Source: Alphaproteobacteria bacterium (GTDB taxonomy: Bacteria > Pseudomonadota > Alphaproteobacteria > UBA828). Taken from it: 64,000 nt of DNA. A program made the translations under genes and the position numbers. The DNA lies in contig CBDEFM010000002.1 of assembly GCA_965237415.1 (NCBI GenBank), positions 384,001 to 448,000 of the forward strand, written 5' to 3'. Under the pieces are notes generated by a model. It saw nothing but the letters and a program-made list of their open reading frames with translations, was not told the DNA's origin and ran no database searches. Position 1 is the first letter of the stretch, and every line of letters begins with the position of its first letter. Positions 3,224 to 62,649 of the stretch are shown here, one piece after another.

Positions 3224-3644
3224 CTCGACCCCGTGTGCCTCGCGGTGATCGTCGATGAACCCGATCATGGCTTGAACCGGCGGTCGAGCTCCGCCTGGGC
3301 AAAATAGGCGCTCGCCTTGCGCAGGATCTCGTTGACCTGCCGGAGGTCGCGGTTCTCACGCTCCAGGGCTTTCAACCGCTCGGCGACCTCGCTGGGGACG
3401 CCGGCGCGCACGCCGCTGTCGCGCTCGAACCTCTTCACCCACTCATTGAGCGTCTGCGCCGTGCAGCCGATCTTCCCAGCTATCGAGGAAACAGCCGCCT
3501 AACGCGAGGCGTGTTCGCCCTCGTGATCCACAACCATCCGCACCGCACGGGCGCGAACCTCAGAAGAAAACCTGTTCCTTGTCTTGCTCATAATGGCTCC
3601 ACTTTCTCAAGAGTTGGAGCCACCGCCAAACCCGGAGCGGTTCA
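3224..3644 (-). mobile_element. Truncated IS3-family (IS51-like) insertion sequence remnant
   Basis: Left end TGAACCGCTCCGGG at 3644; OrfA and only the first ~15 codons of OrfB ([15 protein letters not shown]); no right end. Confidence 0.85.
3265..3591 (-). pseudogene. IS3-family transposase OrfA with premature stop
   Basis: MSKTRNRFSSEVRARAVRMV...[14 protein letters not shown]...[38 protein letters not shown]; TAG at 3499-3501 where Trp is typical. Confidence 0.85.
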
Positions 3645-3754
3645 GTTGCAGCAAAAGACGGTCCCACTATGGCATTTGATTTGAGTGGTGCGGGTGGAGA
3701 GATCACGGCGTGCGAAGAAGACATCTGAATAGGTCAGGAATAGATGTAGGTGGT

Positions 3755-5860
3755 CTATTCCAGCGTCACCCGGTAGTTGCCGAGCGCGTCGATGACGGCC
3801 GTCGCGTCCTCGGGCACGAGGACGGTGGTCGTGGCTTCTTCGACGATGGCGGGGCCGGCGATCTGGGCGCCGGGTGAAAGGTCGTTGCCGCGATAGACCG
3901 AGACCGTCTCCGGGGCGTCGCGGCTGGGCAGGTGAACGAGGCGCCTGCCGTGAGGGCGTGCTTCGTGCGCGGCCGCTGCGCCTTCCGCAGGCGCGAGGTC
4001 GGCGGCAGCGGGCCCGATGGCGCGCACCTTCCAGGTGGTGAACTCGACGAGATCGTCCTCGTTCTTGATCGTGTAGATGCGCTCGTGCATCCGGTGGAAG
4101 CCGTCGGCGAGGCCCGGCACATCGGCGGCGGCAAGCGCGCCGTCACGCGCGCTATTCTCCCGCGCGCCGTCACGCGCGACGAACGGCACCTCGATCTCCC
4201 ACGACTGGTACTGGTAGCGGCCGAGATAGGCGTACTCGAAGCGCTGGTCGGGCTCGGCGATGCCCGCGCGCGCAAGGAAGGCGCGGCCCCGCTCCTCCAG
4301 TTCGGCGAGCACCCCGTTGACACCTTCGAGATCGAAGCGGGCGGCGTCGGTGACGAGCGTCGCCGTCTCCTCCCACACGATATCGGAGATGAGGCCGCCG
4401 AAGGCGCTGAGGCCCGCTGAGAACTTGGGCACCATGTAGCCCTTGATGTCGAGCACCCGCGCCATCTGCCCCATGTGCATGGCGGTGGCGCCGCCGCCGG
4501 CGACGAAGTAGCTCTCGCGCGGGTCGATCCCCTCCTGCACGGTGATGTCCTCGATGGCGGCGATCATGGTGTGATCCACCGTGCTCGCGATGACGCGGGC
4601 CGCGACAGCAAGCTCAATGCCGAGCGCATCCGCGATGGTGCCGACGGCCTTCTCCGCCGCGCCCTTGTCGAGGTGCATCCTGCCGCCGAGGAAGTAGTCG
4701 GGGTCGATGATGCCGAGCACCACATCGGCATCGGTGACGGTCGGCCGCATACCGCCGAGGCCGTAGCAGGCGGGGCCGGGGTCCGCGCCGGCGCTCTCCG
4801 GCCCCACGCGGAGCAGTCCGCCGGCGTCCACATGGGCGATGGAGCCGCCGCCGGCTCCCACTGAGCGCACGTCCACCTTGGGGATGCCCAACATGTCGAA
4901 CTCGGTCAGCATCGCCTCAGGCGAGATGACGAGCTGGCCGTCGCGCACGGCGGAGACGTCGAACGAGGTGCCGCCCATGTCGACCACCACAAGATCGGGC
5001 GCATCCGTGAGCCTTCTGGCGGCGACCGGCGCCAGCGTCGGCCCCGACATCACGCTGTAGATCGGCCGCTCGGCGATTTCGTCCGGCGGCATCATGCCGC
5101 CCAGGCAGTTCGCGATCATCAGCTCGTTGCCGTAGCCGCTCTCCCGCAGGCTCCGGTCGAGCGCGTGGACATAGGCGCTCACCACCGGCCTGAGCGCAGC
5201 GTCGATGACGGCAGAGACCGTACGGCGATATTCGCGGGCAATCGGGTTGAGCCGGTGGCTGAGCGTCACCGGAACTTCGGGCCAGGCGCCCTTGACGATC
5301 TCGCCCACGCGCCGCTCGTGGCTGCCGTTCACCACCGACCACAGCAGGCAGACCGCGACCGCCTCCACGCCCAGCTTCCGAAAATCCTCGACCGCTGCGA
5401 GAACGTCCTCCTCCTCCAGCGGCGTGTGCTCCGCGCCGGTGGCGTCGATCCGCCCGCGCACGCCACGCGTCCTGATCCGGGGCACGAAGGGCGCGGGATA
5501 GGTGAGGCGCCACTGAAACGGCGGCTTTCGGGGCGCTTCGCGCAGCGTGAGTATGTCGCGGAAGCCGTGGGTGCAGATCAGCCCGACGGTCGCGTGCTTG
5601 CCCTCCAGCAGCGCGTTGGTCGACACCGTCGTGCCGTGGACGACGCGCTCTACCCGAGCCATGAAGTCCGGGAGCGCTCGCCCGTAGCCATCGGCCGCCA
5701 GCTTCAGCGCATTCATGAAGCCAAGCTCGAACGCGGCGGGCGTGGACGGCGTCTTGAAAATGCTTAAGTGCTGGCCAGCGTCCGAGACGACGCAGTCGGT
5801 AAAGGTGCCGCCGATATCGATGCAGACCCGGTAATCCCCGGGCGGGGAAGCAGCGGCCAT
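3755..5860 (-). CDS. Hydantoinase/oxoprolinase family protein, A (ATP-binding) subunit
   Basis: DIGGTFTD, HGTTVSTN, DMGGTSFD, GAGGGSIA, GPESAGADPGPACYG motifs. Confidence 0.93.
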   Translation of the reverse strand: MAAASPPGDYRVCIDIGGTFTDCVVSDAGQHLSIFKTPSTPAAFELGFMNALKLAADGYGRALPDFMARVERVVHGTTVSTNALLEGKHATVGLICTHGFRDILTLREAPRKPPFQWRLTYPAPFVPRIRTRGVRGRIDATGAEHTPLEEEDVLAAVEDFRKLGVEAVAVCLLWSVVNGSHERRVGEIVKGAWPEVPVTLSHRLNPIAREYRRTVSAVIDAALRPVVSAYVHALDRSLRESGYGNELMIANCLGGMMPPDEIAERPIYSVMSGPTLAPVAARRLTDAPDLVVVDMGGTSFDVSAVRDGQLVISPEAMLTEFDMLGIPKVDVRSVGAGGGSIAHVDAGGLLRVGPESAGADPGPACYGLGGMRPTVTDADVVLGIIDPDYFLGGRMHLDKGAAEKAVGTIADALGIELAVAARVIASTVDHTMIAAIEDITVQEGIDPRESYFVAGGGATAMHMGQMARVLDIKGYMVPKFSAGLSAFGGLISDIVWEETATLVTDAARFDLEGVNGVLAELEERGRAFLARAGIAEPDQRFEYAYLGRYQYQSWEIEVPFVARDGARENSARDGALAAADVPGLADGFHRMHERIYTIKNEDDLVEFTTWKVRAIGPAAADLAPAEGAAAAHEARPHGRRLVHLPSRDAPETVSVYRGNDLSPGAQIAGPAIVEEATTTVLVPEDATAVIDALGNYRVTLE

Positions 5861-7708
5861 CTAGTTGCCGGCCCCGCCATTCCGGGCCTGTCTCAGCCGT
5901 GTCGTTTCTTCAGGGTCGACCTCATGCTGGATGCCGTCGGCGGCGTGGCGGAGGGCGACGGCATAAACCTCCGCGGCCTTCTCCAGGCTGAGCCAGCCGT
6001 TGTCGACCGCACGCGCGACTGCCGCCGGATCGCGCCGGGCGGGGGCGCCGTAGCCGCCGCCGGCGGTGGTGACGAAGCGGAACATTTCGCCGGGCGCGCA
6101 ACGCTCCTCGTGGAAGGAGGGGAGGGTGACGAGAGTGCCGCCGGCGGTGCGCTTCTGGTTGATCGAGGGCGCGCCGTCGCTGCCGCCGCGCACGCCCTTC
6201 GACGGATAGGTGTCGCCGTCGCTGCAATAGACCGCGGTCATCTCGCCCGCGACGGGGCCGTAGACGGCGAGCGTACCCGGCGCGCCGTCCCACTCGCCGT
6301 GGCCCAAGGTGTCGATGGCAAGCTCCCGGCACTCGAAGTGGATGGGGAACATGCTCTCGTCCACCTCGGTGGGGGAGAGGATTTGCATGCCGCCGTCCAC
6401 CGGCCCGCCGTAGGTGACCCAGCCGTCGTGCCCCGGCAGCCCCGGCCCGCCGCCGAAGCCGATGAACATCTGGTTGACGTAGGTCTGGCCGTCCCGCCTG
6501 GGGTCCTCGCCCGAGATCACGGCGAGACCCAGCGCCTGCTGATAGCCGCCTTCGGCCATGCCATGCGTCGGCCCGATCTGGGCGAAGCAGCAGGAGACCG
6601 CGTTGACGAGCCGGTCGGTGACGTTGGTCGTGGCGACCGAGGTGCCGACGGGGTAGCGCGGCCGGCCGACGATGCAGTTGTCGCGCAGCAGCACACGGAT
6701 GCGCCGTGCGCTGCCCTCGTTATGGGGGATGGTATGGTCGATGTTGTAGAAGGCGCCGGCGCGACAGGCGGCAATCGAGCAGGTCTCGCTCAGGTTCAGT
6801 CCGCTCGGGATGCAATCGATATTGTCGCGCACATCGACGGTGATCGTCGCCTCGTCGGGATCGACGGTCACGGAAGCCCGGACCGGAATCCCCTCGTCGG
6901 CGACGCCCGGCAACGGATCGTGCCGGTTCTCGTAAGACCAGGTGCCGGCCGGCAGAGTCCTGATGGCGGCGGCGGCGCGGCGCTCGCCATAGGCCATCCA
7001 GGCCTCGACGAATTCGGCGATGGTCTCCGGCCCGTATTTCTCCACCAGCTCCTTGATCCGGCGCTCCGCCGTGCGGCAGGCGCCTACCTGAGCCAGATAG
7101 TCGCCGTACCAGAGATCGGGCACCCGCACCTTGATCCTGGCCATGCGGATAATGTCGCGGAGTTCCTTGTAGCCCCGCTCCACACGGACGCAGGGGAAAT
7201 GCAGACCCTCCTCATAAATCGTCTTGGCGTAGGGCAGGTAGGTCGACGGGATCGGCGCGCCGACATCGGCATGGTGGGCGCGCGAGACGGTCCAGAAGAG
7301 CGGCTTGCCGTTGAAGTACACGGGCACGCAGAGCGTGAGGTCCGCGTGGTGCGTGACTCCCGTGTAGGGGCAGTTGTTGAGGAAGGCGTCGCCCTCTTCG
7401 ATATCGTCGAAGAGCTCGGTGAGCGGCCGGGTCGTGAGGTCGATGGCCGCCGCGTGCACCGGGATGCACTCCTCGATGCAGACCAGCCGGTGATCGTAGG
7501 TGAGGATGGCGCAGGACATGTCGCGCGCGATCTTGATAACGCCCGACTTGCTGGCGCGCAGCACGCAGTTGCTCATCTCGCGCAGGATGGCGCCGAAGCG
7601 GCTGGAGAGAACCGAGAGCAGCATCGGGTCGAAGTCCGGCGCCGCCGCCGTCATCGCGCCGCCGCCGACGGTGATCGTATCGAATTCGGAGAGGGGCTGG
7701 TCTTCCAT
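5861..7708 (-). CDS. Hydantoinase B/oxoprolinase family protein
   Basis: DP..LSVL...F..I.REM, NCPYTG.TH..D, HHADVG, IYEEG, TAGGGGYG.P..R motifs; start at 7708 or 7654. Confidence 0.92.
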   Translation of the reverse strand: MEDQPLSEFDTITVGGGAMTAAAPDFDPMLLSVLSSRFGAILREMSNCVLRASKSGVIKIARDMSCAILTYDHRLVCIEECIPVHAAAIDLTTRPLTELFDDIEEGDAFLNNCPYTGVTHHADLTLCVPVYFNGKPLFWTVSRAHHADVGAPIPSTYLPYAKTIYEEGLHFPCVRVERGYKELRDIIRMARIKVRVPDLWYGDYLAQVGACRTAERRIKELVEKYGPETIAEFVEAWMAYGERRAAAAIRTLPAGTWSYENRHDPLPGVADEGIPVRASVTVDPDEATITVDVRDNIDCIPSGLNLSETCSIAACRAGAFYNIDHTIPHNEGSARRIRVLLRDNCIVGRPRYPVGTSVATTNVTDRLVNAVSCCFAQIGPTHGMAEGGYQQALGLAVISGEDPRRDGQTYVNQMFIGFGGGPGLPGHDGWVTYGGPVDGGMQILSPTEVDESMFPIHFECRELAIDTLGHGEWDGAPGTLAVYGPVAGEMTAVYCSDGDTYPSKGVRGGSDGAPSINQKRTAGGTLVTLPSFHEERCAPGEMFRFVTTAGGGYGAPARRDPAAVARAVDNGWLSLEKAAEVYAVALRHAADGIQHEVDPEETTRLRQARNGGAGN

Positions 7709-7713
7709 AGCGG

Positions 7714-9378
7714 CTACACCAGGTTGCGAAGGCTGGCGAGGTCGAAGGCGTCGTCGACGTCGAGCCAGTGGCCGGTGACGTAGTGCACGTCGATGGCAAC
7801 GCCCTGGCGGACGATGTAAGCGAAGACGTCGGGCAGGTCGGCGCGATCGAGGGTGCCGTCCTCGGTCAAGGCGTCGAGCGCGCCTCGCACCAGCGCAGCA
7901 CCGTCTTCGCTCAGCTTGACGAGGCCGATGAACTCGCCGTGAGCGCCGTCGGCCCCGGCCGCATCGCTCCCGATCGCTTCCAGCGTCACGCGGTCGTCGT
8001 CGAGATAGCCGCCGGTGAAGGGCCGGGAGCAGCGCACCCAGTCGACCGCGCGGTCGGGGGCGCGCGAGGAGTCGGGCAGGCGTCGTGCGTCCACCACCGT
8101 AACGATGTCGCCGTCGGCGGCGAGGAGCCCCTCCAGCACATGCCGGCGGAACAGGATATCGCCGTAGGAGACCAGGCACGGCCCGTAAAGCCGATTGTAG
8201 GCGCAGGCGAGGGAAGCGGCCTCGCCAGTCTCGTCGTAGCGATCGTTGTCGACCGCCTCGATGCCGGCGAGATCGATCGCCTCCTTGCGGTAGCCGCGCA
8301 CCACCGTCACGTCGCGCAGGCCGCTCTCGTTGAGCGTTCGGACGAGGCGTTGGAGCAGGGGCTCGCCGCGCACGTCGATCATGCACTTCGGGCGCCGCTC
8401 GGTAAGCGGGCCGAGCTTCTCGCCGCGCGAGGCGGCAAGCAGGATCGCGCGCTGACCGCCGCCCGCGGCGAGATAGCGCGCCTCGGCGGCAGCAAGCTCG
8501 GCCTGGCCGGTGAGCGAAAAGACCTCCCGCACGGGCGCGATCTCCTCCTCGACGGCGACGAGGGATTCGCTCTCCCTGATCGCCTTGCTCACCTGGCGCA
8601 TCGCGGACACCGCAGCCCGCATGTTGTGGTTCGCCCAGATCACCATGGAGACCCCGGCGTCCCGGAACGTCTGTGTCGGCGTGCGGTGATACATGGTCGG
8701 CACGATTACCACCGGCGCCCGGCCGCCCCAGGACTCGCAGAAGCCGGTGATCTCGTCGGCGGTCTCCTTCTTGGAGTGGATCAGCACCGCGTCGGCGCCG
8801 GCCCGGTGATAAGCCTCGGCCCGGCGCAGCGCCTCGTCCATGCCCCAGCCGGCGATCAGCGCCTCGACGCGCGCCACGATCTGGAAGTCGTCGTCGCTTT
8901 GGCTGTCCTTGCCCGCCTTGATACGGCCGCAGAACTCGTCCACGTCCGCCAGCGGCTGGTTCTCGCCGATGAAGGAGTTGGTCTTTGGGAACAACTTGTC
9001 CTCGATGCAGACCCCTGCAATGCCGCGCTGGCAAAGCTTTCTCACCAGGCGCCGCACGTTGTTGAAGTTGCCGTAGCCGGTGTCGCCATCCACGAGGATG
9101 GGGATCGTGGTGGCGTCGGCCATGAACTCCAGCATTTCGAGGACCTGGGTCCAGGAGGCCTCGTTGTTGTCGCGCACGCCGAGTGCGGCCGACATCGAGA
9201 GGCCCGAGGCCCAGATGCCCTCGAACCCGGCCTCTTCCACGATCTTGGCGGAGAGCCCGTTGTGCGCCTCCATGATGAAGGAGAGGGCAGGGGCGTGGAG
9301 CAGGCCGCGCAGCCGCGCGGCCTTGGACATCGTGGCAGCCTGCGCGTCCGCGCTGCCGATAGGAAGCCTTGTCGCCAT
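7714..9378 (-). CDS. aepX: Phosphoenolpyruvate mutase fused to C-terminal nucleotidyltransferase domain
   Basis: [16 protein letters not shown], PepM signature [10 protein letters not shown] (EDKxxxxxNS), WANH; C-terminal AILLAASRG...RPKCM, VVRGY, VSYGD, W.DVD of NTP-transferase; alternative start 9411. Confidence 0.95.
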
Positions 9379-9587
9379 GGGGAATCGCCGGTTCGTCGCC
9401 CGTTCGTCCATGAACCTGACGTATCGCGGTGATATAAAAGGTTAACGACAAGCCGGCGCCGATGCAATGCGGCGCCCCGGATTCTTCCCCACCGGGTGCG
9501 TGAAACGTGACAGCGCCGCGCGATGACGTGACGGCGCCGGCACCGCGACGTCTCCCGGCGCGACCCAATATATGTAGTTGGAAACGC

Positions 9588-10742
9588 ATGTCACCGACCG
9601 ACCGAGACACCAACCTCGACCCCGTCGCATTCATCGACCTCGGCGCGCAGTACCGGCGCCTCAAGGCCGATATCGACGCCGCCATCGCCGGTGTCCTGGA
9701 GGATGGCCGCTTCGTCTTGGGGCCGGCGGTGGCCGAGCTTGAGGCGGCGCTCGCCGCGCGGGCCGGTGCCGCCCACGCGGTTACCTGCGCGAGCGGCACC
9801 GATGCCCTGCTGATCGCGTTGATGGCCGAGGGGATCGGGCCGGGCGATGCGGTCTTCGTGCCCGGTTTCACCTTTCCCGCGACCGCCGGCGTCGTGGCGC
9901 TGGTGGGGGCCGCGCCGGTCTTCGTCGATGTGGCGGAAGAAAGCTGCATGATGGACCCCGCCGACCTTGCGATGCGGGCAGACCGCGTGGCGGACGAGGG
10001 ACGGCTCGTGCCACGCGCGGTGATTGCGGCGGACCTCTTCGGCCAAGCGGCAGACTATGACGCGCTCGCGCCGATCGCGGCGGAGCGGGGAATGCTGCTG
10101 ATCGACGATGCGGCCCAGAGCTTCGGCGGGGCAAGCGGCGGCCGGCCGGTCGGGGCGCTCGCGCCGGTCACCTCCACCAGCTTCTACCCGGCCAAGCCGC
10201 TCGGCGGCTATGGGGACGGTGGCGCGCTCTTCACCGACGATGCGGCGCAGGCCGCGCGCTGGCGCTCGATCCGCCAGCACGGCCAGGGCGACGGCAAGTA
10301 CGACATCGTTCGGGTCGGCCTCAACAGCCGTCTCGATACCCTCCAGGCCGCGGTTCTGCTGGTCAAACTGCCCGCCTTCGATGCCGAGATCGACGCCCGT
10401 GAGCGGGTGGCGGCGCTCTACGACTCGGTGCTTGCCGGGGCCGTCGGGCTGCCGGGTCGGCTGCCCGAGCGTCGCTCCACCTGGACGCAGTACACGATCC
10501 GGCTGGATCGGCGCGACGAGGTTCAGGCGGCGCTGGCAGCGCAGGGAATCCCGACCGCGATCCACTATCCGGTGCCGATGCACCTGCAGCCGGTCTACCG
10601 CGGCTGGGGCGAGGGGTCAGGCTCGCTGCCGGTCAGCGAGCGCCTGAGCCGCCAGGTTCTTTGCCTGCCCATGCACGCCGACCTCGACGAGCCGACGGCC
10701 ATGCGAATCGCCCGCGCCGTGCGGGACGCGGTCGGCAGCTGA
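9588..10742 (+). CDS. DegT/DnrJ/EryC1/StrS family PLP-dependent sugar aminotransferase
   Basis: FIDL.AQY, ASGTDAL, DDAAQS, SFYPAKPLGGYGDGG, NSRLDTLQAA, HYPVP. Confidence 0.93.
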   Translation: MSPTDRDTNLDPVAFIDLGAQYRRLKADIDAAIAGVLEDGRFVLGPAVAELEAALAARAGAAHAVTCASGTDALLIALMAEGIGPGDAVFVPGFTFPATAGVVALVGAAPVFVDVAEESCMMDPADLAMRADRVADEGRLVPRAVIAADLFGQAADYDALAPIAAERGMLLIDDAAQSFGGASGGRPVGALAPVTSTSFYPAKPLGGYGDGGALFTDDAAQAARWRSIRQHGQGDGKYDIVRVGLNSRLDTLQAAVLLVKLPAFDAEIDARERVAALYDSVLAGAVGLPGRLPERRSTWTQYTIRLDRRDEVQAALAAQGIPTAIHYPVPMHLQPVYRGWGEGSGSLPVSERLSRQVLCLPMHADLDEPTAMRIARAVRDAVGS

Positions 10743-10752
10743 CGGCGCGCCG

Positions 10753-11616
10753 ATGGGAGGCGAAGGGCCGCACGGCGTCGTCTTCGGTGCGTCCAGCTTC
10801 GTTGGCCGGCACTTGCTCCGGCGCCTCGCGGAGCGCGGGGTCACGGGGCAGTGCCTGAGCCGGTGCTCTTCGCCTGCGCCGCATGAGGAGTCGCAGGGCT
10901 TTTCCTGGCGCGTTCTTTCGGCGGAAGGGGAGCTGCGCGTTCCCGACGCTGCGGACCTGTTCTCTCTCGTGCCCATCGCCGCGCTGCCGCCACTGATCGC
11001 ACGGATGACGGGAGGTAGAAGGCTGGTCGCGTTGAGCACGGCCAGCGTGATATACGCGACGAGCAGTTCCGACCCCGCCGAGCGGGCCGGGTCGGAAGAG
11101 GTCCGGCGAGCCGAGGAAGACGTGGGGCGGCTTTGTCGGGAGAGGGGGATCGTCTGGACGATCTTGAGGCCGACCCTGATTTACGATCCGGGGCGCGACC
11201 GCAATGTCAGCGCTATTGCCGCCGTGGCGCGGCGCTTCGGGTTCGTGCCCGTCGCATGGCCCGCCACCGGGCGCCGCCAGCCGATCCACGCCGATGACGT
11301 GGCGCAGGCCATGGTCGCCGCCCTCGACGCGCCTGGTGCCGCCGATGCGATATTGGGCCTGCCCGGCGGCGAGTCGCTGACATACCGGGACATGGTTCGC
11401 CGGATTTTCCGGTCCCTGGGGCGGCGCCCCATCCTGCTTTACCTGCCGCTCTGGCCCGCGCGGTTGGCCTTCCGCGTATGGCTGCTGCTGACGGGTGCCG
11501 GTTACAGTGCCGCGAGCCTCGAGCGGATGAATATGGACCTGACGCTCGATCCGGATTCGGCGCTGGAGGTGCTCGAACTGACCTTCCGGCCGTTCCGCCC
11601 CGAGTTTTCCGAGTGA
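10753..11616 (+). CDS. NAD-dependent epimerase/dehydratase family protein (atypical SDR)
   Basis: N-terminal VFGASSFVG, WTILRPTLIY, QPIHADDVA. Confidence 0.82.
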   Translation: MGGEGPHGVVFGASSFVGRHLLRRLAERGVTGQCLSRCSSPAPHEESQGFSWRVLSAEGELRVPDAADLFSLVPIAALPPLIARMTGGRRLVALSTASVIYATSSSDPAERAGSEEVRRAEEDVGRLCRERGIVWTILRPTLIYDPGRDRNVSAIAAVARRFGFVPVAWPATGRRQPIHADDVAQAMVAALDAPGAADAILGLPGGESLTYRDMVRRIFRSLGRRPILLYLPLWPARLAFRVWLLLTGAGYSAASLERMNMDLTLDPDSALEVLELTFRPFRPEFSE

Positions 11617-11665
11617 CCGATCGTCCCAAGCGCGAACGCCGGCGGCAACGAGGCCGACGCGCACC

Positions 11666-12877
11666 GTGAGCCGGGAACCGGCATCGGCGACGGCCACCCG
11701 CTGGGACATCGTGCTGATGGCGCTCGGCGCCGGGATCCTCGCCGGCTTTCAAGTCGGCAAGGTGCCGCCGGCACTGCCGGTGCTGCGCGAAAGCCTCGGG
11801 CTCGATTTCGTCACCGCGGGCTGGCTCACCTCGATCTACTACGCGATCGGCGCCGCCCTCGGCGTCGCCGTCGGGCTGCTTTCCGACCGCGCCGGCCCGC
11901 GCCGCCTGATGCTCTTAGGTGTGGCCTTCCTCGGCGCGGGCAGCCTGCTGGGCGGGCTGGTGAGCGGCAGCACCTGGCTGCTGATCGCGCGCTTCGTCGA
12001 AGGGTTCGGCTTCGTCGGCGTCACGGTGACGGCGCCCAAGCTGATCGCGACCGCGACGCGTCCCCGCGATTACGGCCTCGCCTTCGGCATCTGGGGCGCC
12101 TACATGCCGATCGGTATGGCAATCGCGATGCTGATGGCGCCGGCGCTGCTCGATGCCCTCGGCTGGCGCGGCTTCTGGCTCGTCAGCGCGGCATTGGTGG
12201 CCCTCTTTATGGTGGCGCTGGGCTGGAGCCTGCATCCGCGGCGCTGGCCGGCCACCTTCGACGCCGAGGCGCTCGATTGGTCCGGCGTGCGCGCGACGCT
12301 CGCTCGGGCAGCGCTCTGGCTCTTCGGACTCTCGTTCGCGCTCTACACGCTGCAGTGGTTCGCCATCATGACGTGGCTGCCGACCTTCCTGATCGAGACT
12401 CAAGGGCGCAGCGCGGCCGGCGCGGCCGTCTGGGGCGCGATGGTGGTGGCGAGCAACGCCCTCGGCAACTTTGCCGCCGCTTGGCTGATGCACCGTCACG
12501 TGCGGCGCTGGGTGCTGATCGGGATCGCCTTCTGCGCGATGGGCGGGTCCTCCGCCGGCATCTTCCTGACCGGAACGCCGGCCGACCTCAAGATCGTGCT
12601 TGCCTTCGTGTTCAGCGCTGTCGGCGGCCTGCTGCCGGCGGCGGCGATCGCCGGTGCGGCCGCTCATGCGCCACGGGCTGCCTTCGTCGCCATGGCCAGC
12701 GGCTTCGTGGTGCAGGGCGCCGCGCTCGGCAGCCTTCTCGGGCCACCGGTGATGGCCACCGCGGTCGAAGGCCTCGGCGGCTGGGCCGCGTCCTGGTGGG
12801 TGATGCTCGCGGTCTCGGGCATCGGCCTCGGTCTCGTGGCCGGCCTCATCGTGGCCGAGCGCCCCTCCCGCATCTGA
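11666..12877 (+). CDS. MFS transporter (CynX/NimT-like)
   Basis: About 12 hydrophobic segments; motif A G.LSDRAGPRR; GKVPPALP; R..EG motif. Confidence 0.88.
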   Translation: MSREPASATATRWDIVLMALGAGILAGFQVGKVPPALPVLRESLGLDFVTAGWLTSIYYAIGAALGVAVGLLSDRAGPRRLMLLGVAFLGAGSLLGGLVSGSTWLLIARFVEGFGFVGVTVTAPKLIATATRPRDYGLAFGIWGAYMPIGMAIAMLMAPALLDALGWRGFWLVSAALVALFMVALGWSLHPRRWPATFDAEALDWSGVRATLARAALWLFGLSFALYTLQWFAIMTWLPTFLIETQGRSAAGAAVWGAMVVASNALGNFAAAWLMHRHVRRWVLIGIAFCAMGGSSAGIFLTGTPADLKIVLAFVFSAVGGLLPAAAIAGAAAHAPRAAFVAMASGFVVQGAALGSLLGPPVMATAVEGLGGWAASWWVMLAVSGIGLGLVAGLIVAERPSRI

Positions 12878-13012
12878 CGCCGATCGTCCCGGCCGATGTC
12901 GACACGCTGGTGACTGTCAGCCGGTTCCGGGAGGAATGCGTGCGGCCGGCTGCCCGTGCCGATTCCGGCGTGATACCATGCCCCCGCTGCTTCCAACCGG
13001 TGCGGTTGAGTC

Positions 13013-13798
13013 ATGAACCAGAGTAAGGAATTGCTTGCCGGAAGGCGGGCCCTCGTCACGGGTGCGGCCACCGGCATCGGACGCGCCATTGCAGAGGCCT
13101 TCGCTCGCGAGGGCGCGCTGGTCGCCGTCAGCGACATCAGCCTCGACGGGGCTCGCGATGTCGCCGAACGCCTCGGCGACAGCACGCGCGCCTACAGGCT
13201 TGACGTCACCGACGCGGCGGAGACCGCGAGTGTCTTCCGCAGCGCTGCCGACTGGATGGGAGGTCTCGATCTGCTTGCCGCCAACGCGGGCATTTCGACG
13301 ATGAACCCCGTGGCCGACCTCACCGAGGAGGAATGGGACTCCAACATGGCGGTGAATGCCAAGGGCGTTTTCCTCTCCAACCGGGAGGCCGTGCGTCACT
13401 TTCTCGCCGCCGGTGAGAAGGGCGCGATCGTCAACACGGCCTCGCTTGCCGGCAAGATCGGCGCGCCCTACCTCGCGCACTACGCGGCCAGCAAGTTTGC
13501 CGTGATCGGGTTCACGCAATCGCTGGCGCGGGAGGTCGGCGAACACGGCATTCGCGTCAATGCGGTCTGTCCCGGCTATGTGCGCACGTCCATGCAGGAC
13601 CGCGAAGTCGTGTGGGAGGGCAAGCTGCGCAGCATGACTGCGGAGGCCGTCCGCGAAGAGTATGTGGCCGCAACACCCTTGGCCCGGCTCGAGGAGCCCG
13701 AGGACGTTGCTGCGATCGTCGTCTTTCTGGCGAGCGATCTTTCCGGTTTTCTGACTGGCGAGGCGATCAATGCCAGCGGCGGCGTGCTGATGGACTGA
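13013..13798 (+). CDS. SDR family NAD(P)-dependent oxidoreductase (polyol/sugar dehydrogenase-like)
   Basis: TGAATGIG, NAG, catalytic YAASK, NAVCPG. Confidence 0.92.
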   Translation: MNQSKELLAGRRALVTGAATGIGRAIAEAFAREGALVAVSDISLDGARDVAERLGDSTRAYRLDVTDAAETASVFRSAADWMGGLDLLAANAGISTMNPVADLTEEEWDSNMAVNAKGVFLSNREAVRHFLAAGEKGAIVNTASLAGKIGAPYLAHYAASKFAVIGFTQSLAREVGEHGIRVNAVCPGYVRTSMQDREVVWEGKLRSMTAEAVREEYVAATPLARLEEPEDVAAIVVFLASDLSGFLTGEAINASGGVLMD

Positions 13799-13816
13799 GC
13801 CCGGAGCAGGGACGTC

Positions 13817-14623
13817 ATGGCTTGGTTGAAGGATTGTACGGGCACGGGCAAGCCCGTCATCGCGATGGCCCATTTGTTGCCGCTGCCTGGGGCTCCGCTC
13901 TACGACGCCGGTGGCGGCATGCAGGCCATCGTCGACCATGTCGCACGTGATCTCGAAGCTCTCCAGGCCGGCGGCGTCGATGCCGTCATGTTCGGCAACG
14001 AAGGCGACCGGCCTTACCTGCTGGAGGCCTCGCCGGAAAGCCTCGCGGCCATGGCGGCCGTCATCGCGGCGGTCAAGGGGGCGCTGCACGTTCCGTTCGG
14101 TGTCAACTATCTCTGGGATCCGGTGGCGACCGTGGCGCTGGCTGTCGCGACGGATGCCGTCTTCGCGCGCGAAATCTTCACCGGGGTCTACGATTCCGAC
14201 ATGGGTCTGTGGCAGCCCTCCGCCGCCCGGGCGCTCCGCTTGCGCCACGACCTCGGCCGCGACGATCTCAAGCTCATGTTCAACATCAATGCCGAGTTTG
14301 CCGCGCCGCTGGGAGCCCGTTCCGTTGAGGCGCGGGCCGCAAGCGCCGTCTTTTCGTCGCTCGCCGACGCCGTTCTCGTCTCGGGTCCGATGACCGGCCA
14401 GGCGGTGGACCAGGCAAGCCTCGAGCGTGTTGCGAGCGCCGTCCCCGGCACGCCGGTCCTCGCCAACACCGGCTGCACCGTCGACAACATCGCCGATATT
14501 CTGAAGGTGGCCGATGGCTGCATCGTCGGTACCCATTTCAAGATCGATGGCGATACCTGGAACGCCGTCGACCGGGACCGCGTCGCGCGCTTCATGGAGG
14601 TCGTCTCGAAGGTTCGCGGGTGA
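13817..14623 (+). CDS. BtpA/SgcQ family TIM-barrel protein
   Basis: KPVIAM.HL.PLPG.P, GNEGDRPY, PFGVN.LWD, SGPMTG, ADG.IVGT.FK. Confidence 0.9.
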   Translation: MAWLKDCTGTGKPVIAMAHLLPLPGAPLYDAGGGMQAIVDHVARDLEALQAGGVDAVMFGNEGDRPYLLEASPESLAAMAAVIAAVKGALHVPFGVNYLWDPVATVALAVATDAVFAREIFTGVYDSDMGLWQPSAARALRLRHDLGRDDLKLMFNINAEFAAPLGARSVEARAASAVFSSLADAVLVSGPMTGQAVDQASLERVASAVPGTPVLANTGCTVDNIADILKVADGCIVGTHFKIDGDTWNAVDRDRVARFMEVVSKVRG

Positions 14624-16146
14624 TGAGCTGTCTGCTCGGCCTCGATATCGGGACGACATCGACAATCGGTATTCTGATCGATACCGAGGGTGGCGTCCTC
14701 GCCACCGCGTCGCGGCCGAACGCGCTCGTCTCCCGCCACGCCAACTGGGCCGAAGAGGATACCGAGCTCTGGTGGTCCAACGTCTGCGACCTGGTGCCGG
14801 ACCTACTGCGGACCGCTAGGCTCGACGCAGGCGCGATCGCGGCGGTCGGTGTGACCGGGATGGTGCCCACGGTGATCCTTCTCGATGCATCGGGCCGGCC
14901 GCTGCGCCCGTCGATCCAGCAGAACGATGCCCGCGCAGTCGATGAAATCGAGGAGCTGAAGCGGCTCGTCGACGGCGACGACTGGTTCCGGCGCACCGGG
15001 GGCAGCATCAATCAGCAGGTCGTGGCGCCCAAGCTTCTCTGGCTCGCGCGTCACGAGCCCGAATGCTTCCGCCAGGCGAAGACCGTGATGGGGTCCTACG
15101 ACTACATCACGTTCCGGCTGACCGAAGCCGTCTCTATCGAAGGGAACTGGGCGCTCGAGGCGGGGTTCTACAATCTCGCGCGAGGCGGCCTCGACGAGGA
15201 TCTGGTTCGCCTCGGCGGAATATCGCTCGACCGGTTGCCGCCGTTGCGGGCCTCTGGCGAACCCGCAGGCGCGGTCACGCGGCAGGCAGCGGAGGAGACC
15301 GGCCTCGTCCCTGGGACGCCGGTGGTGACCGGTTGCGCCGACCATATCGCGTCGGCGTTCGTCGCCGGTGCCTGCGATCAGGGCGATCTGGTGGTCAAGT
15401 TCGGGGGTGCCGGGGACATCATGCTCACATGTCAGCGTCCGGTGACCGACCCGCGCATGTTCATCGACTTTCACATCGTGCCGGACCTCTACGTCAGCAA
15501 TGGCTGCATGGCCGCGAGCGGAAGTGTGCTGAATTGGGTTGTGGCGCAGCTCGGGCAGGCGGACGCCGAAGCTGCGCGGGCCGCCGGGCAGACGCCTCAC
15601 GCCTGGCTGGATGACCAGGCACATGACCTGCCGCCGGGAGCCGGCGGCCTCGTGCTGCTGCCGTACTTCCTCGGGGAGAAGACGCCCCTGCACGATCCCC
15701 GTGCGAAGGGCACGCTGGTCGGCCTCGGGCTCCACCACGAGTTGCGCCATATCTGGCGTGCCGCGCTCGAATCGGTGGCGTTCGGCTTCCGTCACCACAT
15801 GGATGTGTTCGAGGAGATGGACTGCGGCGTCGGCCGGGTTCTGGCGTGCGACGGCGGTGCAGCCAGCGATCTCTGGATGCAGATTACGGCCGATATCCTC
15901 GAAAGACCGGTGGAACGGCTGCTCGAACATCCCGGCTCCAGCCTCGGTGCGGCCTTCGTGGCGGGCATGGGCACGGGCGCGCTCGACGATTGGTCGGCGA
16001 TCGGTCGCTACGCCCGGTGCGATCGCATCTTCGAACCCGACGACAGCCGGACCGACGCCTACCGCAACGCCTACGGCATCTATCGCGATCTCTACCGCCG
16101 GCTGGAAACGCTCTATCCATCGCTTGCCGACCTGCCCGCCGCCTGA
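14620..16146 (+). CDS. FGGY-family carbohydrate kinase (xylulokinase-like)
   Basis: GLDIGTTS, PKLLW, G.ADH, LPYFLGEKTP, GGAAS.LW.QI.AD. Confidence 0.92.
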   Translation: MMSCLLGLDIGTTSTIGILIDTEGGVLATASRPNALVSRHANWAEEDTELWWSNVCDLVPDLLRTARLDAGAIAAVGVTGMVPTVILLDASGRPLRPSIQQNDARAVDEIEELKRLVDGDDWFRRTGGSINQQVVAPKLLWLARHEPECFRQAKTVMGSYDYITFRLTEAVSIEGNWALEAGFYNLARGGLDEDLVRLGGISLDRLPPLRASGEPAGAVTRQAAEETGLVPGTPVVTGCADHIASAFVAGACDQGDLVVKFGGAGDIMLTCQRPVTDPRMFIDFHIVPDLYVSNGCMAASGSVLNWVVAQLGQADAEAARAAGQTPHAWLDDQAHDLPPGAGGLVLLPYFLGEKTPLHDPRAKGTLVGLGLHHELRHIWRAALESVAFGFRHHMDVFEEMDCGVGRVLACDGGAASDLWMQITADILERPVERLLEHPGSSLGAAFVAGMGTGALDDWSAIGRYARCDRIFEPDDSRTDAYRNAYGIYRDLYRRLETLYPSLADLPAA

Positions 16147-24187: not shown

Positions 24188-24745
24188 CCGGACCATGGTG
24201 TGGTGCACGGCGCGCGGCGGCTGCGTCAGCATCGCGCCATGCGGTGCATCGGATTTCGGACCGCAGCTGGAGGGGGGCCGGAGAGCCCGATGCCTCCATT
24301 GCGTCATGGCCGGACTTGTTCCGGCCATCCACGTCGCGCACGCCCGAAGGGTCGCGCGCGTGGAATGTAGCCAGCCACCTACAGGCGGAGCCTGATGAGA
24401 AAGATGCCCGGAACAAGTCCGGGCATGACGGCGTGAGAGAATGACTGGCGCAGAAGGAGCGTGGACCGACCCTATTCGCGCAGCCACGATTTTGTACCGC
24501 CCGCGAGATCGCTCATGCGCCCACGACCTTGTCTACCGCCCGCAGAACCTTATTGCCGCGCCCGCGACCTTTCAGGCGCGGGCGACACGCGCGTGCGGGA
24601 CATCCCACTTATCCCACTTAATCCCACTTTGTCCCGCTTTATCCCGCCGAATCCCAGAAGACATTGAGGCCACCGGTCCCACCGCGCCCGCGCGCGTCGG
24701 CGGAAGGCGCGCAGGCCGTGGTCGCCGCGAGAGTTCCGGGCTAGG
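24188..24745. repeat. Composite intergenic repeat sharing modules with the 52752-53124 element
   Basis: CCGGACCATGGTG...ATCGCGCCATG (24188-24241), ~20-bp units ending GACC (24511-24587), TCCCACTTA tandem (24602-24655), end GAGTTCCGGGCTAGG (24731-24745). Confidence 0.7.
24302..24430. repeat. Palindromic repeat element (alphaproteobacterial RPE/REP-like)
   Basis: CGTCATGGCCGGACTTGTTCCGGCCATC ... GATGCCCGGAACAAGTCCGGGCATGACG inverted arms; second copy at 57529-57622. Confidence 0.85.
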
Positions 24746-24788
24746 ATCGCGCGCTTCGGCGATAACCACGATCTCAGGTGCGCGCTCC

Positions 24789-26126
24789 ATGACCCTCGAC
24801 GACATCAACTATCCCGAGAAGCCCAACGATCTGGAAGCCTTCTGGATGCCGTTCACGGCAAACAAGGGCTTCAAGCAGAAGCCGCGCCTGCTGACGCGCG
24901 CCAAGGGCATGCACTACATGACGCCGGACGGCCGCGAGATCCTGGACGGGACCGCGGGGCTCTGGTGCTGCAACGCAGGCCACGGGCACGAGAAGATCGT
25001 GGCAGCGATCAAGGCGCAGGCCGAGCGCATGGACTTCGCGCCCACCTTCCAGCTGGGCCATCCGGCCGCCTTCGAGCTCGCCAACCGGCTGGTCGATCTT
25101 GCGCCCGGCGATCTCGACCACGTGTTCTTCACCAACTCGGGCTCGGAATCGGCCGACACCGCGCTCAAGATCGCGCTCGGCTATCACTATGTGCGGGGCA
25201 AGGGCTCGAAGACCCGGCTGATCGGGCGCGAGCGCGGCTATCACGGCACCAATTTCGGCGGCACCTCCGTGGGCGGGATCGTCAAGAACCGCATGTTCTA
25301 CGGCGGCCTGCTCTCCGGCGTGGATCATATCCGCCACACCCATGACCTGGAGCACCAGGCCTTCAGCCGCGGCGAGCCGGAGTGGGGCGCGCATCTGGCG
25401 GACGACCTGGAGCGGCTGGCGGCGCTGCACGACCCCTCCACCATCGCCGCGGTGATCGTGGAACCCGTGGCGGGCTCCACCGGCGTCCTCGTGCCGCCCA
25501 AGGGCTACCTGCGTCGGCTCCGCGAGATCTGCGACAAGCACGACATCCTGCTCATCTTCGATGAGGTGATCACCGGCTTCGGGCGTCTCGGTGCGAACTT
25601 TGCGGCCGACTACTTCGACGTGCAGCCGGACATCCTCACCACCGCCAAGGCGCTCACCAACGCGACCGTCCCCATGGGCGCGGTGTTCTGCCGGGGCAAG
25701 ATCTACGACGCCTTCCTCGAGAACACGGCGCAGGGGATCGAGCTCTTCCACGGCTATACCTATTCCGGCCATCCGCTGGCGTCGGCGGCCGGGATCGCGA
25801 CGCTCGATGTCTACCGCGAGGAGGGGCTGTTCGAGCGCGCGGCGGAACTCGCGCCCTATTGGGAGAATGCGCTCTGGTCGCTTAGGGGTGGCCACCACGT
25901 GATCGACCTGCGCAATCTCGGGATCGTCGCCGGTATCGAGCTGGAGCCCCGCCCCGGCGCGCCCACCGCGCGCGCCACCGAGACTTTCCACAAGTGTTTC
26001 GACGAGGGCGTGCTCATCAGGGTCACGGCCGACACGATCGCGCTTTCGCCGCCGCTCATCGTGGAGAAGAACCAGATCGACCGGATCTTCGACACCATCG
26101 GCGGTGTGCTGAAGACGGTGGACTGA
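24789..26126 (+). CDS. Omega-amino acid/beta-alanine--pyruvate aminotransferase (class III PLP)
   Basis: [49 protein letters not shown]. Confidence 0.93.
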
Positions 26127-26157
26127 GCGCACAGGCGGAACACGCGGGGGAAGCAGA

Positions 26158-27363
26158 ATGGCGCAGGCGAAGGCCTATATCGTCGGTACGCTGGACACCA
26201 AGGGCGAGGAGCTTCTCTACATCCGCGATCTGCTGGCGGCGGACGGAGTGCAGTCTTGCGTCGTGGATGTCGGAACCGGCAGCGCCGCCCGGCCGCCCGG
26301 CGTGGACGTGAGCGCGGCCGAGGTCGCCGCCCGCCATCCAGATGGCGCCGATGCGGTGCTCACCCTCGAGGATCGCGGCCAGGCGGTCGCTGCCATGGGC
26401 GAGGCGTTGGCACGCTTCCTGCCGACGTGCGCGGACATCGGCGGCGTGATCGGGGCAGGGGGGTCCGGCAACACCGCGCTCGTCGCCCAGGGGATGCGGT
26501 CGCTCCCCATCGGCGTGCCGAGGGTGCTGGTCTCCACCGTCGCCTCGGGCGACGTCGCCCCCTATGTCGGGCCCAACGACATCACGATGATGTACTCGGT
26601 GGTGGACGTCGCCGGCCTCAATCGCATCTCCCGCGTCGTGCTCGCCAATGCGGCCCATGCGCTCGCCGGCATGATGCAGGGCGCGACACCGGCGGGAGAA
26701 GACAAGCCCGCCATCGGCTTGACCATGTTCGGCGTCACCACGCCCTGCGTCGATCAGGTCCGCGCCGGGCTTGAGGCGCGCTACGACTGCCTGGTGTTCC
26801 ACGCGACCGGCACCGGCGGCCGCTCGATGGAGAAGCTGGTGGATTCCGGCATGGTGCTGGGCTGCATCGACAGCACCACCACCGAGGTGTGCGACCACCT
26901 CATGGGCGGCGTCTTCAGCGCCGGCGAAGACCGGCTCGGCGCCTTCGCGCGCACGGGTCTGCCCTATGTCGGCTCCTGCGGCGCGCTCGACATGGTGAAC
27001 TTTGGCGCGGTCGAGACTGTGCCAGCGCAATACAGCGACCGGACCTTCCATGTGCACAATCCCAATGTCACGCTCATGCGCACGAGCGCGGAAGAGAACG
27101 CGGCGATGGGCGAGTGGATCGGCGGCAAGCTCAACGCCTGCCAGGGGCCGGTGCGCTTCCTGATCCCGGAGAAGGGGGTCTCGCTCATCGACGCGCCGGG
27201 CATGCCGTTCCACGACCCGGACGCCGACGCGGCCCTCTTCGAGGCGCTGGAGCGGACGGTCGAGCAGACCGAGCGCCGCCGCCTGATCCGGCTGCCGCTC
27301 CACATCAACGACGCCGATTTCGCCCAGGCTCTCGTGGAGAGCTGGAACGAGATCGCCGCCTGA
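26158..27363 (+). CDS. Tm-1-like ATP-binding domain protein (UPF0261)
   Basis: [54 protein letters not shown]. Confidence 0.92.
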
Positions 27364-27385
27364 TCCAAACCGAGGGAGACCGCCG

Positions 27386-28216
27386 GTGCCAGGCATCGAC
27401 CGCCGAGCGCTATTGGATAAGTTTCACGGCATGGTCGCCCGCCGCCAGCCGATCATCGGCGGTGGCGCGGGCACCGGGCTCTCGGCCAAGTGCGAGGAAG
27501 CCGGCGGCATCGACCTCATCGTGATCTACAACTCGGGCCGCTACCGCATGGCCGGCCGGGGCTCGCTCGCCGGCCTGCTGGCCTACGGCAACGCCAACGA
27601 GATCGTGAAGGAGATGGCGCACGAGGTGATCCCCGTGGTCAGCCACACGCCGGTGCTCGCCGGCGTCAACGGGACTGACCCCTTCATGGTGCTCGACCGC
27701 TTCTTGGGCGAGCTCAAGTCGCTGGGCTTCTCAGGCGTGCAGAACTTCCCGACCGTCGGGCTGATAGACGGCGTCTTCCGCGCCAACCTCGAAGAGACGG
27801 GCATGGGCTACGGCCTAGAGGTCGACATGATCCGGGCGGCGCACGAGGCCGACCTGCTCACCACGCCCTATGTCTTCTCCGAGGCCGACGCGGTCGCCAT
27901 GGCACACGCCGGCGCCGACATCATCGTCTGCCACATGGGGCTCACGACCAGCGGCACCATCGGCGCGCAGACCGCGAAGTCGCTGGAGGAGTGTGTGCCG
28001 CTCATCGACGCGTGGGCGATGGCGGCCAAGTGGGTGCGCGAGGACGTGATCGTGCTCTGCCACGGCGGGCCCATCGCCTCGCCAGAAGACGCGACCTATG
28101 TCCTGAAGAACGCAAAGCATGTGCACGGCTTCTACGGCGCGAGCAGCATGGAGCGCCTGCCCACCGAGTTCGCCATGACCGCGCAGACAAAGGCCTTCAA
28201 GGCGGTCAGCTTCTGA
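27386..28216 (+). CDS. PEP hydrolase-like TIM-barrel protein (partner of UPF0261)
   Basis: [52 protein letters not shown]; GTG start with GAGGGAG RBS. Confidence 0.92.
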
Positions 28217-38304: not shown

Positions 38305-38602
38305 GGCTCTCCTCCTGCGTCCGCCCACGCGCCGCATGACCGTGGCGAGACGCTCACTCTGCGCCGACGCGCCTGCGAGGGGCCGGTCTCGGCTCCCTCA
38401 GGCGCCGGCATCGCCCCATCTTCGCCGACACCCGGCCGCGCGACAATTGCTATGCGAGCCCATCGACGCAGGGAAGAGCAGGGCGATGTATGCGCCTCCG
38501 GCATGAATCGGTGTCTTGTAACGGGCCGCTGCGGTCGCTACCTGACTGTTGTGGGTCGCCTTCAAGCCAGCGGGGCCCCAACAATTGGCGAGCATCGTCA
38601 CG

Positions 38603-43088: not shown

Positions 43089-43118
43089 CGCTCCCCGCAT
43101 CGGCGGCCTGGCGGCCTA

Positions 43119-43931
43119 GGCCTGTTCACACTAACGCAGTGCATCGCATATGAGCGCGAAGAGGATGAACCCGAGGAAGATCACGTCGAGCTTCTCGAAT
43201 CGAGAGAAGATTCGGCGGAAGCCCTTGAGGCGTCGGAACAGGCGCTCGATTTCGTTGCGCCGCCTGTACATCTCCCGGTTGTATACCCAGGGGTCGCGCC
43301 GGGTCTTGAGCGGCGGAACCACGGGTGTGAAGCCGAGGTCGAGCGCCAGTTGGCGTGTCTCGTTGCCTTCGTACGCGCGGTCCATGATCAGACAGGGCTG
43401 GTGCGGTTGCGCGCCGAGGCGCTGGAGCAGCTTGCGCCCTTCGGGAGCATCGTGGGCCTGTCCGGGCGACAGCGAGAACGTTATGGCCGTCCGGGCATCC
43501 GCGGCAACCATATGAAGCTTGGTGGTCCAGCCGCCTCGGGATCTGCCGATCGACTGCGGTCCGTTTTTTTTAGCGCCCCAGTCCCGTCGGGATGCACCTT
43601 GACGATGGTGCTGTCCAGCGACAGCGCTTCGAGCTTGATGCGCACGATCTGTTCTCGTTGCAGCTGTTCGAAGACCCGGTCGAGGACGCCGTTCTTCGAC
43701 CAGCGGTTCATGCGCATGTAAATGGTGTGCCAATTGCCGAAGTGACTGGGCAAGCCGCGCCATTTGCAGCCATGCTCCGCCACGTACAGGATGGCGTTGA
43801 GCACCTGCAGGTTCGACAGGCTGACGTTGCCGCGTTGCACCGGAAGGTACGGGGCAATGCGAGCGTATTGGGCTTCCGTGATCTCCATCCGAGAATGATA
43901 ACACGATTCGCATAATTAGCGTGAACAGGCC
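43119..43931 (-). mobile_element. IS5-family (IS427-group-like) insertion sequence, apparently intact
   Basis: 16-bp inverted repeats GGCCTGTTCACACTAA / TTAGCGTGAACAGGCC (1 mismatch); CTA direct repeats at 43116-43118 and 43932-43934. Confidence 0.93.
43131..43888 (-). CDS. IS5-family transposase, two ORFs joined by probable -1 programmed frameshift
   Basis: OrfA GCKWRGLP..FG.W.TIY.R..RW, LDST.VKVH; A8 run at 43564-43571; OrfB GRSRGG.TTKLH, DRAY, Y.RRNEIERLF..LK.FRRI. Confidence 0.92.
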
Positions 43932-55781: not shown

Positions 55782-55783
55782 CC

Positions 55784-62634: not shown

Positions 62635-62649
62635 GAGTGCCTCCCGCGC

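Follow-up and report, generated by a model that had tools for sequence, protein, structure and literature searches.

Phosphoenolpyruvate (PEP) mutases (Ppm or PepM) are set apart from the rest of the isocitrate lyase family by the motif EDKXXXXXNS, and their commonest fusion partner is a MobA-like nucleotidyltransferase domain (PF12804), which occurs in ~33% of a set of 1485 Ppm proteins (Rice et al. 2019, PMC6697681). In a survey of ppm neighbourhoods sorted by branch point, the combination of PepM with phosphonopyruvate decarboxylase (Ppd) and a 2-aminoethylphosphonate (AEP) transaminase, encoded by aepX, aepY and aepZ, forms the majority class (56% of neighbourhoods), and ~13% of neighbourhoods are unassigned, including a few termed “pre-Ppd other” (Li and Horsman 2022, PMC8942020). 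Here the analysis concerns a pepM gene followed by a hydantoinase gene pair, hydB and hydA, in a window of 64,000 nucleotides (nt) from an alphaproteobacterial genome (GenBank assembly GCA_965237415.1, contig CBDEFM010000002.1, positions 384,001 to 448,000; G000:C2:384001-448000 in the notation used below), the contig measuring 4.04 Mb and the genome 4.75 Mb. An earlier note, made from the letters of the window alone, had suggested that the hydantoinase pair might act in a new phosphonate pathway and drive PepM. The evidence below instead makes it very probable that these bacteria use an ordinary pathway to AEP and cytidine monophosphate-AEP (CMP-AEP), in which ppd was relocated in one subclade and hydBA is a bystander.

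Genes in the window were called from Pfam and NCBIfam scans of open reading frame (ORF) translations. The pepM gene (7714-9411, minus strand, 565 amino acids (aa)) encodes a PEP_mutase domain (PF13714, 221.6 bits) and scores 402.3-404.9 bits against the TIGR02320 equivalog model (cut-off 319.55). It is the sole true pepM of the genome, being the only one of four PEP_mutase matches above cut-off. Its translation contains the Ppm motif as [10 protein letters not shown], within the stretch [13 protein letters not shown], and among four aligned PepM sequences the motif region is invariant and the catalytic domain nearly so. At residues 322-442 the polypeptide carries an NTP_transf_3 domain (PF12804, 54.3 bits), and it is this fusion of PF12804 to Ppm that identifies the domain as a candidate PntC-type cytidylyltransferase. 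On the same strand follow hydB, of the Hydantoinase_B/oxoprolinase family (5861-7708 or 5861-7654; Hydantoinase_B, 404.9 bits), and hydA (3755-5860, 701 aa), whose Hydantoinase_A, Hydant_A_N and Hydant_A_C domains score 248.4, 165.4 and 33.6 bits; the two genes abut with a gap of 0. The pepM stop codon (TAG, 7716-7714) is separated by 5 nt from an ATG at 7708, and an alternative ATG at 7654 would leave a spacer of 59 nt. The later start is the more likely one, because residue 4 of the solved chain 6yra_B aligns to HydB residue 26 counted from 7708 (residue 19 being the Met at 7654) and because the DNA homology of hydB to its orthologues in sister genomes ends at 7642-7647. The region has a G+C content of ~68-71%, so that long spurious ORFs abound; a 1362-aa ORF (5861-9949), in which the Hydantoinase_B match is limited to residues 774-1303, was discarded as an artefact of this kind.

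The gene order given in the earlier note, with the motif, the fused nucleotidyltransferase and the gaps of 5 or 59 and 0 nt, was thus upheld by the Pfam and NCBIfam matches and by reading of the junction. Its statement that the 64 kb holds no recognizable ppd, phosphonomethylmalate synthase-type or AEP transaminase gene also stood: Pfam scans of 27 ORFs (1-22 kb) and of 52 ORFs of at least 180 aa (21-64 kb) gave no Ppd, class-V AEP transaminase or HMGL-type synthase, and whole-genome searches with TIGR03297 and TIGR03301 gave no match within the window. The sole thiamine pyrophosphate enzymes there are dehydrogenase E1 subunits (61621-63618). By neighbourhood alone, the locus would fall into the “pre-Ppd other” group of PMC8942020.

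A missing neighbour in the window is, however, not a missing enzyme. An intact Ppd, free of stop codons, is encoded on the contig of pepM at a distance of ~618 kb (C2:1009435-1010523). It is the sole match in the genome above the TIGR03297 cut-off (415.7-415.9 bits; cut-off 312.5) and is preferred over the sulfopyruvate decarboxylase model, with sulfopy_beta giving 134.3 bits against its own cut-off of 221.5. The sole AepZ above cut-off lies at C2:1235584-1236648 (TIGR03301, 454.2 bits; cut-off 360.8), and pepM, ppd and aepZ are thereby spread over ~845 kb of one contig. The ppd gene is followed by genes for a TAXI-TRAP binding protein and a fused permease; the surroundings of aepZ, with MocA-like, XdhC and CoxG genes on one side and pyruvate carboxylase on the other, are not informative. 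Two of the genes that the earlier note had proposed to look for were therefore found, in line with its fallback of an accidental adjacency with ppd elsewhere. It had also named, as a finding that would tell against its proposal, an aepY/aepZ pair elsewhere together with no conserved pepM-hydantoinase linkage; both genes exist, but as separate loci and not as a pair.

Two further candidates were noted. An NTP_transf_3 protein encoded upstream of aepZ was considered as a second PntC and dropped, since its neighbours (XdhC, MobB, CoxG and an AAA ATPase) suggest an accessory cluster in which it would act as the cytidylyltransferase of the molybdenum cofactor. A pair of separate alpha and beta subunits similar to sulfopyruvate decarboxylase (G000:C2:1840348-1841327; L002 and L003) scored 59.9 and 123.1 bits against the Ppd model, below its cut-off, and is a conceivable promiscuous phosphonopyruvate decarboxylase; a pair resembling it also occurs in genome G032 of the same subclade.

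The three genes form a near-universal set in the family. Among 44 family genomes, 23 of them of high quality, the PepM fusion was found in 42, Ppd above cut-off in 39 (with a match in 23 of the 23 high-quality genomes) and AepZ above cut-off in 39; at E ≤ 1e-90, AepZ was found in 40 of the 44 and in 22 of the 23. In all genomes whose coordinates allowed a comparison, aepZ and pepM were unlinked. Within the subclade of the source genome, the relocated Ppd is single, intact, 84-96% identical and unlinked to pepM in all five genomes tested, its upstream flank being common to 5/5 and its downstream flank to 4/5; argS adjoins ppd in two genomes (G034 and G044). A single old relocation of ppd followed by retention explains both the one intact, unlinked copy and the common flanks. 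The subclade pepM is under purifying selection, with mean pairwise ratios of nonsynonymous to synonymous substitution (dN/dS) of 0.16-0.26 (16 sequences, 552 codons).

The gene that lies downstream of pepM in relatives was then read in two sets of loci. A scan with one genome per species gave 560 relatives of the PepM fusion, of which the best 80 were kept and their neighbourhoods read by tblastn with the window proteins and the Ppd of the source genome. Downstream of pepM and on the same strand, ppd was found in 61 of these 80 loci (within 300 bp in 56) and a hydB orthologue in nine, all nine with a PepM 88-99% identical to that of the window; eight loci had neither gene and two were too short to judge. 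In three other loci (L030, L082 and L087), remote hydantoinase paralogues (25-35% identity) are found 5-8 kb upstream of pepM, in A-then-B order. The second set comprised 30 pepM loci from the search of the 44 family genomes. In the subclade of genus g1 to which the source genome belongs (PepM at least 87% identical, 17 loci including the source), hydB follows pepM directly in six loci, a PhyH-family gene and then hydB follow in six, a 5′ fragment of hydB and then an insert in one, and nothing was recognized within 1.5 kb in four; two of these last four (L023 and L029) show hydB further on when longer loci are read. Directly downstream of pepM in three g1 genomes with a PepM 80-81% identical (L162-L164) lies ppd, and ppd is within 3 kb of pepM in each of 10 loci that come from the family's other genera (seven by inspection, three from coordinates). 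The order pepM-ppd is ancestral.

The adjacency of hydBA to pepM was also examined from the hydantoinase side. Three sister genomes that retain the intact pepM-ppd pair (G001, G002 and G003) have HydB orthologues with 83-88% aa identity, encoded at a great distance from pepM or on a separate contig, and the DNA homology of this region to the window is limited to the two genes. The neighbours of hydBA are metK and trmB upstream and DEAD_assoc and DAO oxidoreductase genes downstream in G001, and Rieske oxygenase, OpuAC-type ABC transporter and CoA-transferase genes upstream and DAO downstream in G002, contexts that are unrelated to phosphonates. Between source and sister genomes HydB is at least as conserved as PepM (88% versus 80-81%), which fits vertical orthology with an unchanged function. 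A reverse search with HydB against metagenome contigs gave 25 loci, 11 of them with at least 2.7 kb upstream; the three with HydB 95% identical have pepM upstream, and none of the eight with HydB 53-81% identical does. Linkage of pepM to a hydantoinase was therefore not seen across taxa beyond close kin (9/80 pepM loci with PepM at least 88% identical, 0/8 contigs with distant HydB, 0/3 sister genomes). Since ppd and aepZ are present elsewhere in the genome and the linkage does not extend beyond a single subclade of one genus, the new pathway proposed in the earlier note is not supported; its fallback, an accidental adjacency, is the branch that the evidence bears out.

Hydantoinase genes are moreover abundant in this lineage. 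The source genome has 44 Hydantoinase_B (PF02538) matches, all above the Pfam cut-off, and five relatives have 24-56 HydB matches each, so that adjacency to a hydantoinase gene is not rare. At ~1 pair per 108 kb, and assuming ~1 gene per kb, the chance that a given gene has a hydantoinase as its immediate downstream neighbour on the same strand is ~1%, which is low, yet unsurprising when a whole genome is considered. Another such adjacency was observed at G000:C2:1060412-1064167 (L009), where a PEP_mutase/isocitrate-lyase-family protein (ORF 1429-2322 of that locus, plus strand; PF13714, 156.6 bits) adjoins a Hydantoinase_B gene (C2:1063221-1064768); the protein was excluded as a PepM, its motif reading EDQEMPKKCG. 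Two Hydantoinase_B matches (G000:C2:5200-6789 and C2:1151018-1152607) share the same score (486.6 bits) and frame length (593 aa) and may reflect a recent duplication or an assembly repeat. The very large expansion of the hydantoinase/oxoprolinase family in the lineage may merit a study of its own.

Closer comparison of the loci marks the pepM/hydB junction as the scar of a rearrangement, which is unstable within the subclade. The direct order pepM-hydB is shared by the window, by L025 and L026, both collinear with it, and by four others, and in L023 genes for an ERG4/ERG24-family membrane protein (11838-13193) and a PhyH protein (13231-14151) intervene. In L020, the closest relative with a PepM 99% identical, a 4.2-kb insert (11887-16080) separates pepM from hydB, with a 192-bp duplication of the hydB 5′ end at its flanks; on it lie a DDE_Tnp_1 transposase gene, an IS1595-type transposase fragment and, on the opposite strand, a Zn-dependent dehydrogenase gene, and hydBA remains intact (98% and 97% identity) though cut off from pepM. 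Beyond hydA, L021 and L026 continue with a methyltransferase, an alpha/beta hydrolase and a PALP enzyme on the other strand, then an ABC1 kinase or pntA, whereas the order in the sister loci L027 and L028 is pepM, ppd, a radical SAM gene on the opposite strand, ABC1, pntA and pntB. The segment between pepM and ABC1-pnt was thus exchanged, with ppd and radical SAM in the one and (PhyH)-hydBA-methyltransferase-hydrolase-PALP in the other. In the window, the hydA stop (position 3755) is exactly where homology to all relatives breaks off, which marks a further breakpoint.

Family membership of the encoded proteins allows a pathway to be proposed. The PepM domain would convert PEP to phosphonopyruvate, and the distant Ppd would pull this reaction by decarboxylation to phosphonoacetaldehyde; AepZ would then form AEP, which the fused PntC-type domain would convert to CMP-AEP for cell-surface decoration. 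On this reading the segment downstream of pepM, ancestrally ppd, was replaced in one subclade of the genus, the relocated ppd now lying beside argS and the TAXI-TRAP transporter, and a block starting with hydB-hydA, preceded by a PhyH dioxygenase gene in many relatives, took the place behind pepM. To judge from its closest solved relatives, HydBA most likely hydrolyses cyclic amides (lactams or hydantoins) at the expense of ATP, outside phosphonate synthesis.

Several observations weigh against a bystander role for hydBA. In the source genome hydBA is probably read through from pepM, given the operon-like spacing (5 or 59 nt) and a junction at which a weak-consensus scan of 3400-9700 placed neither a promoter-like nor a terminator-like site; across that region the scan gave one promoter-like site (0.6 expected), which precedes pepM (minus strand, 9594-9567), and four terminator-like sites (2.4 expected). 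The same-strand adjacency is kept in about a dozen species-level genomes and three metagenome contigs, which may reflect descent alone because the genomes are closely related. A PhyH-family dioxygenase gene lies between pepM and hydB in L021 (11752-12636), L022, L024, L058 and others, and directly upstream of pepM in L070 (9021-9878). The PhyH superfamily includes AEP hydroxylases, and the dioxygenase near pepM may hydroxylate AEP; in the source genome the closest PhyH match is only 47% identical, with no close copy. The apparent exception G032, a genome of the g1 subclade (98% complete, 7% contamination; loci L161 and L184), has an intact pepM-hydB pair with a PepM 87% identical and an intact motif, and neither Ppd nor AepZ was found in it above cut-off (best model scores 118.7 and 114.5 bits). 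Its pepM is not relaxed (mean pairwise dN/dS 0.209, against 0.164-0.263 in the other 15 sequences), and at its TAXI-TRAP site the contig runs into sequence homologous to G000:C2:318184-319536 and not into ppd. The essential gene argS, the neighbour of ppd in relatives, was likewise not found in the G032 assembly, although it was found in all three control genomes. This could stem from a misjoin or gap, or from a genuine rearrangement in which genes were lost, and an assembly gap or misjoin is the simplest reading because argS is missing too; with the TAXI-TRAP site joined to another genome region, G032 cannot count as a natural genome that has truly lost ppd and aepZ.

These observations are what a recruitment of hydBA to phosphonate metabolism after the rearrangement would draw on. 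The enzyme would then trap or modify phosphonopyruvate (or its enol) or a later phosphonate at the expense of ATP, by phosphorylation or carboxylation of the enol as in acetone or acetophenone carboxylases or by opening or closing a cyclic phosphonate amide, giving a pull on PepM independent of Ppd. Had the pathway proposed in the earlier note held, it would have meant a new ATP-driven pull on the unfavourable PEP mutase reaction. Tight same-strand spacing with no terminator-like site, the adjacency kept across the subclade and the PhyH genes would all suit it, and G032 would become its natural test case, with a pepM under purifying selection and neither Ppd nor AepZ found. The recruitment was nevertheless judged very unlikely: the orthologues in sister genomes sit away from pepM in unrelated contexts, Ppd is intact in every subclade genome tested, the insertion sequence-bearing insert of L020 splits the genes without loss of hydBA, the 44 paralogues make a chance adjacency plausible, and G032 also lacks argS beside the ppd site. 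The word “hydantoin” occurs 0 times in the main texts of PMC8942020 and PMC6697681, and “oxoprolinase” 0 times in that of PMC8942020, whose supplementary neighbourhood tables lie outside this count; a full-text literature search for pepM with hydantoinase returned only papers unrelated by title, those listed having neither term in title or abstract. As an in-silico look at co-transcription, RNA-library contigs of four runs (X15-X18) were aligned to 5500-9600 at 90% likeness. Among the 32 matches listed, no contig spans 7714 in the arrangement of the window, such contigs being blind to strand and to single transcripts and possibly derived from DNA; in two studies the contigs match no further than 7714 and continue into unlike sequence, which fits relatives with another gene there.

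A local coupling enzyme might instead be sought on the other side of pepM, where a divergent DegT/DnrJ/EryC1-family aminotransferase gene (9507-10742, plus strand; Pfam, 312.1 bits) could convert phosphonopyruvate to phosphonoalanine, or phosphonoacetaldehyde to AEP, and make the locus self-sufficient. This DegT gene adjoins pepM across the subclade, in L027/L163 of the same genus, where ppd is present, and in L166 of another genus (72-74% identity), and aminotransfer to phosphonopyruvate is a known branch point, phosphonoalanine accounting for 9.2% of the neighbourhoods in PMC8942020. Its closest solved chains are, however, nucleotide-sugar aminotransferases (4qgr_A, 373.6 bits; WbpE, 327.5 bits), among NCBIfam models it matches PseC best, at 215.5 bits and so under the cut-off of 423.5, canonical AepZ is kept in 39 of the 44 family genomes, and no DegT gene lies beside pepM in L162, L164 and most other relatives; a literature search for phosphoenolpyruvate mutase with DegT returned nothing related. 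Such a coupling role is highly unlikely. That pepM is a decaying relic of a broken operon, with no phosphonate made, is scarcely credible: the separation of pepM and ppd, 185-730 kb in six genomes with both on one contig, would agree with it, but the full-length frame keeps its catalytic motif intact, the catalytic domain hardly varies among the four aligned sequences, the dN/dS values point to constraint, and Ppd and AepZ are retained. An ordinary AEP/CMP-AEP pathway with a relocated ppd remains the reading that we favour.

Other genes of the window surround the locus. The Pfam match of the DegT ORF begins at residue 53 and the orthologue in L027 has 380 aa, so that the true start may lie ~30-40 codons further in. 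Next on the plus strand are a short ORF resembling NAD-binding epimerases and short-chain dehydrogenases/reductases (10753-11616; Pfam) and an MFS transporter gene (11666-12877; MFS_1, 138.6 bits). The presence of the short ORF in the locus varies: the window and L020 alone have it, and homology in L021, L023 and L058 skips 10753-11663; the transporter gene is syntenic with DegT and pepM across the subclade and in L027. DegT and the transporter may serve a glycan or lipid that receives the phosphonate. Two further hydantoinase sets were identified by Pfam, a fused one at 34441-38337 and another at 53733-57511; the earlier note was silent on these and on the DegT gene. A class-III aminotransferase (24441-26126), a UPF0261 protein (26158-27363) and a PEP_hydrolase-like protein (27386-28216, 433 bits) are grouped on the same strand, this trio at 24441-28216 not being related to PepM by Pfam. 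A DDE_Tnp_1 transposase ORF (43131-43913, minus strand) lies between serA (41511-43100) and an ORF without a family match.

Compared with described systems, HydBA shares the two-subunit A/B architecture of caprolactamase (6YRA) and N-methylhydantoinase (7HK5) over full-length matches, the closest solved chain to HydA being 6yra_A (423.2 bits, against 342.1 bits for 7hk5_A), and HydB scoring 194.2 bits with 6yra_B. It is not a caprolactamase CapAB by the equivalog models NF050156 and NF050157, with 563.2 bits for HydA and 240.8 bits for HydB against cut-offs of 1000. Acetone and acetophenone carboxylases (5SVB, 5M45 and 5L9W) belong to the same superfamily, and HydA gives 281.2 bits with the gamma subunit of acetophenone carboxylase, but the scores against NF042975 and NF042976 (296.4 and 124.6 bits) fall short of the cut-offs of 1500, and there are only two subunits here, the locus holding no further carboxylase subunit. 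The window PepM itself has the PEP_mutase domain, the EDKXXXXXNS motif and the C-terminal PF12804 domain of the PntC fusions described in PMC6697681, and differs in a neighbourhood with no ppd or AEP transaminase gene. Relative to the canonical AEP route, other-genus loci (10) and three same-genus genomes keep pepM and ppd adjacent with only aepZ unlinked, whereas all these genes are dispersed in the source genome, and genome mining for phosphonates that relies on neighbourhoods would misfile this lineage as “pre-Ppd other”. The source genome nevertheless encodes all three enzymes of the canonical route above their NCBIfam equivalog cut-offs, and the gene of the window is a further Ppm-PntC fusion, with its pathway genes scattered.

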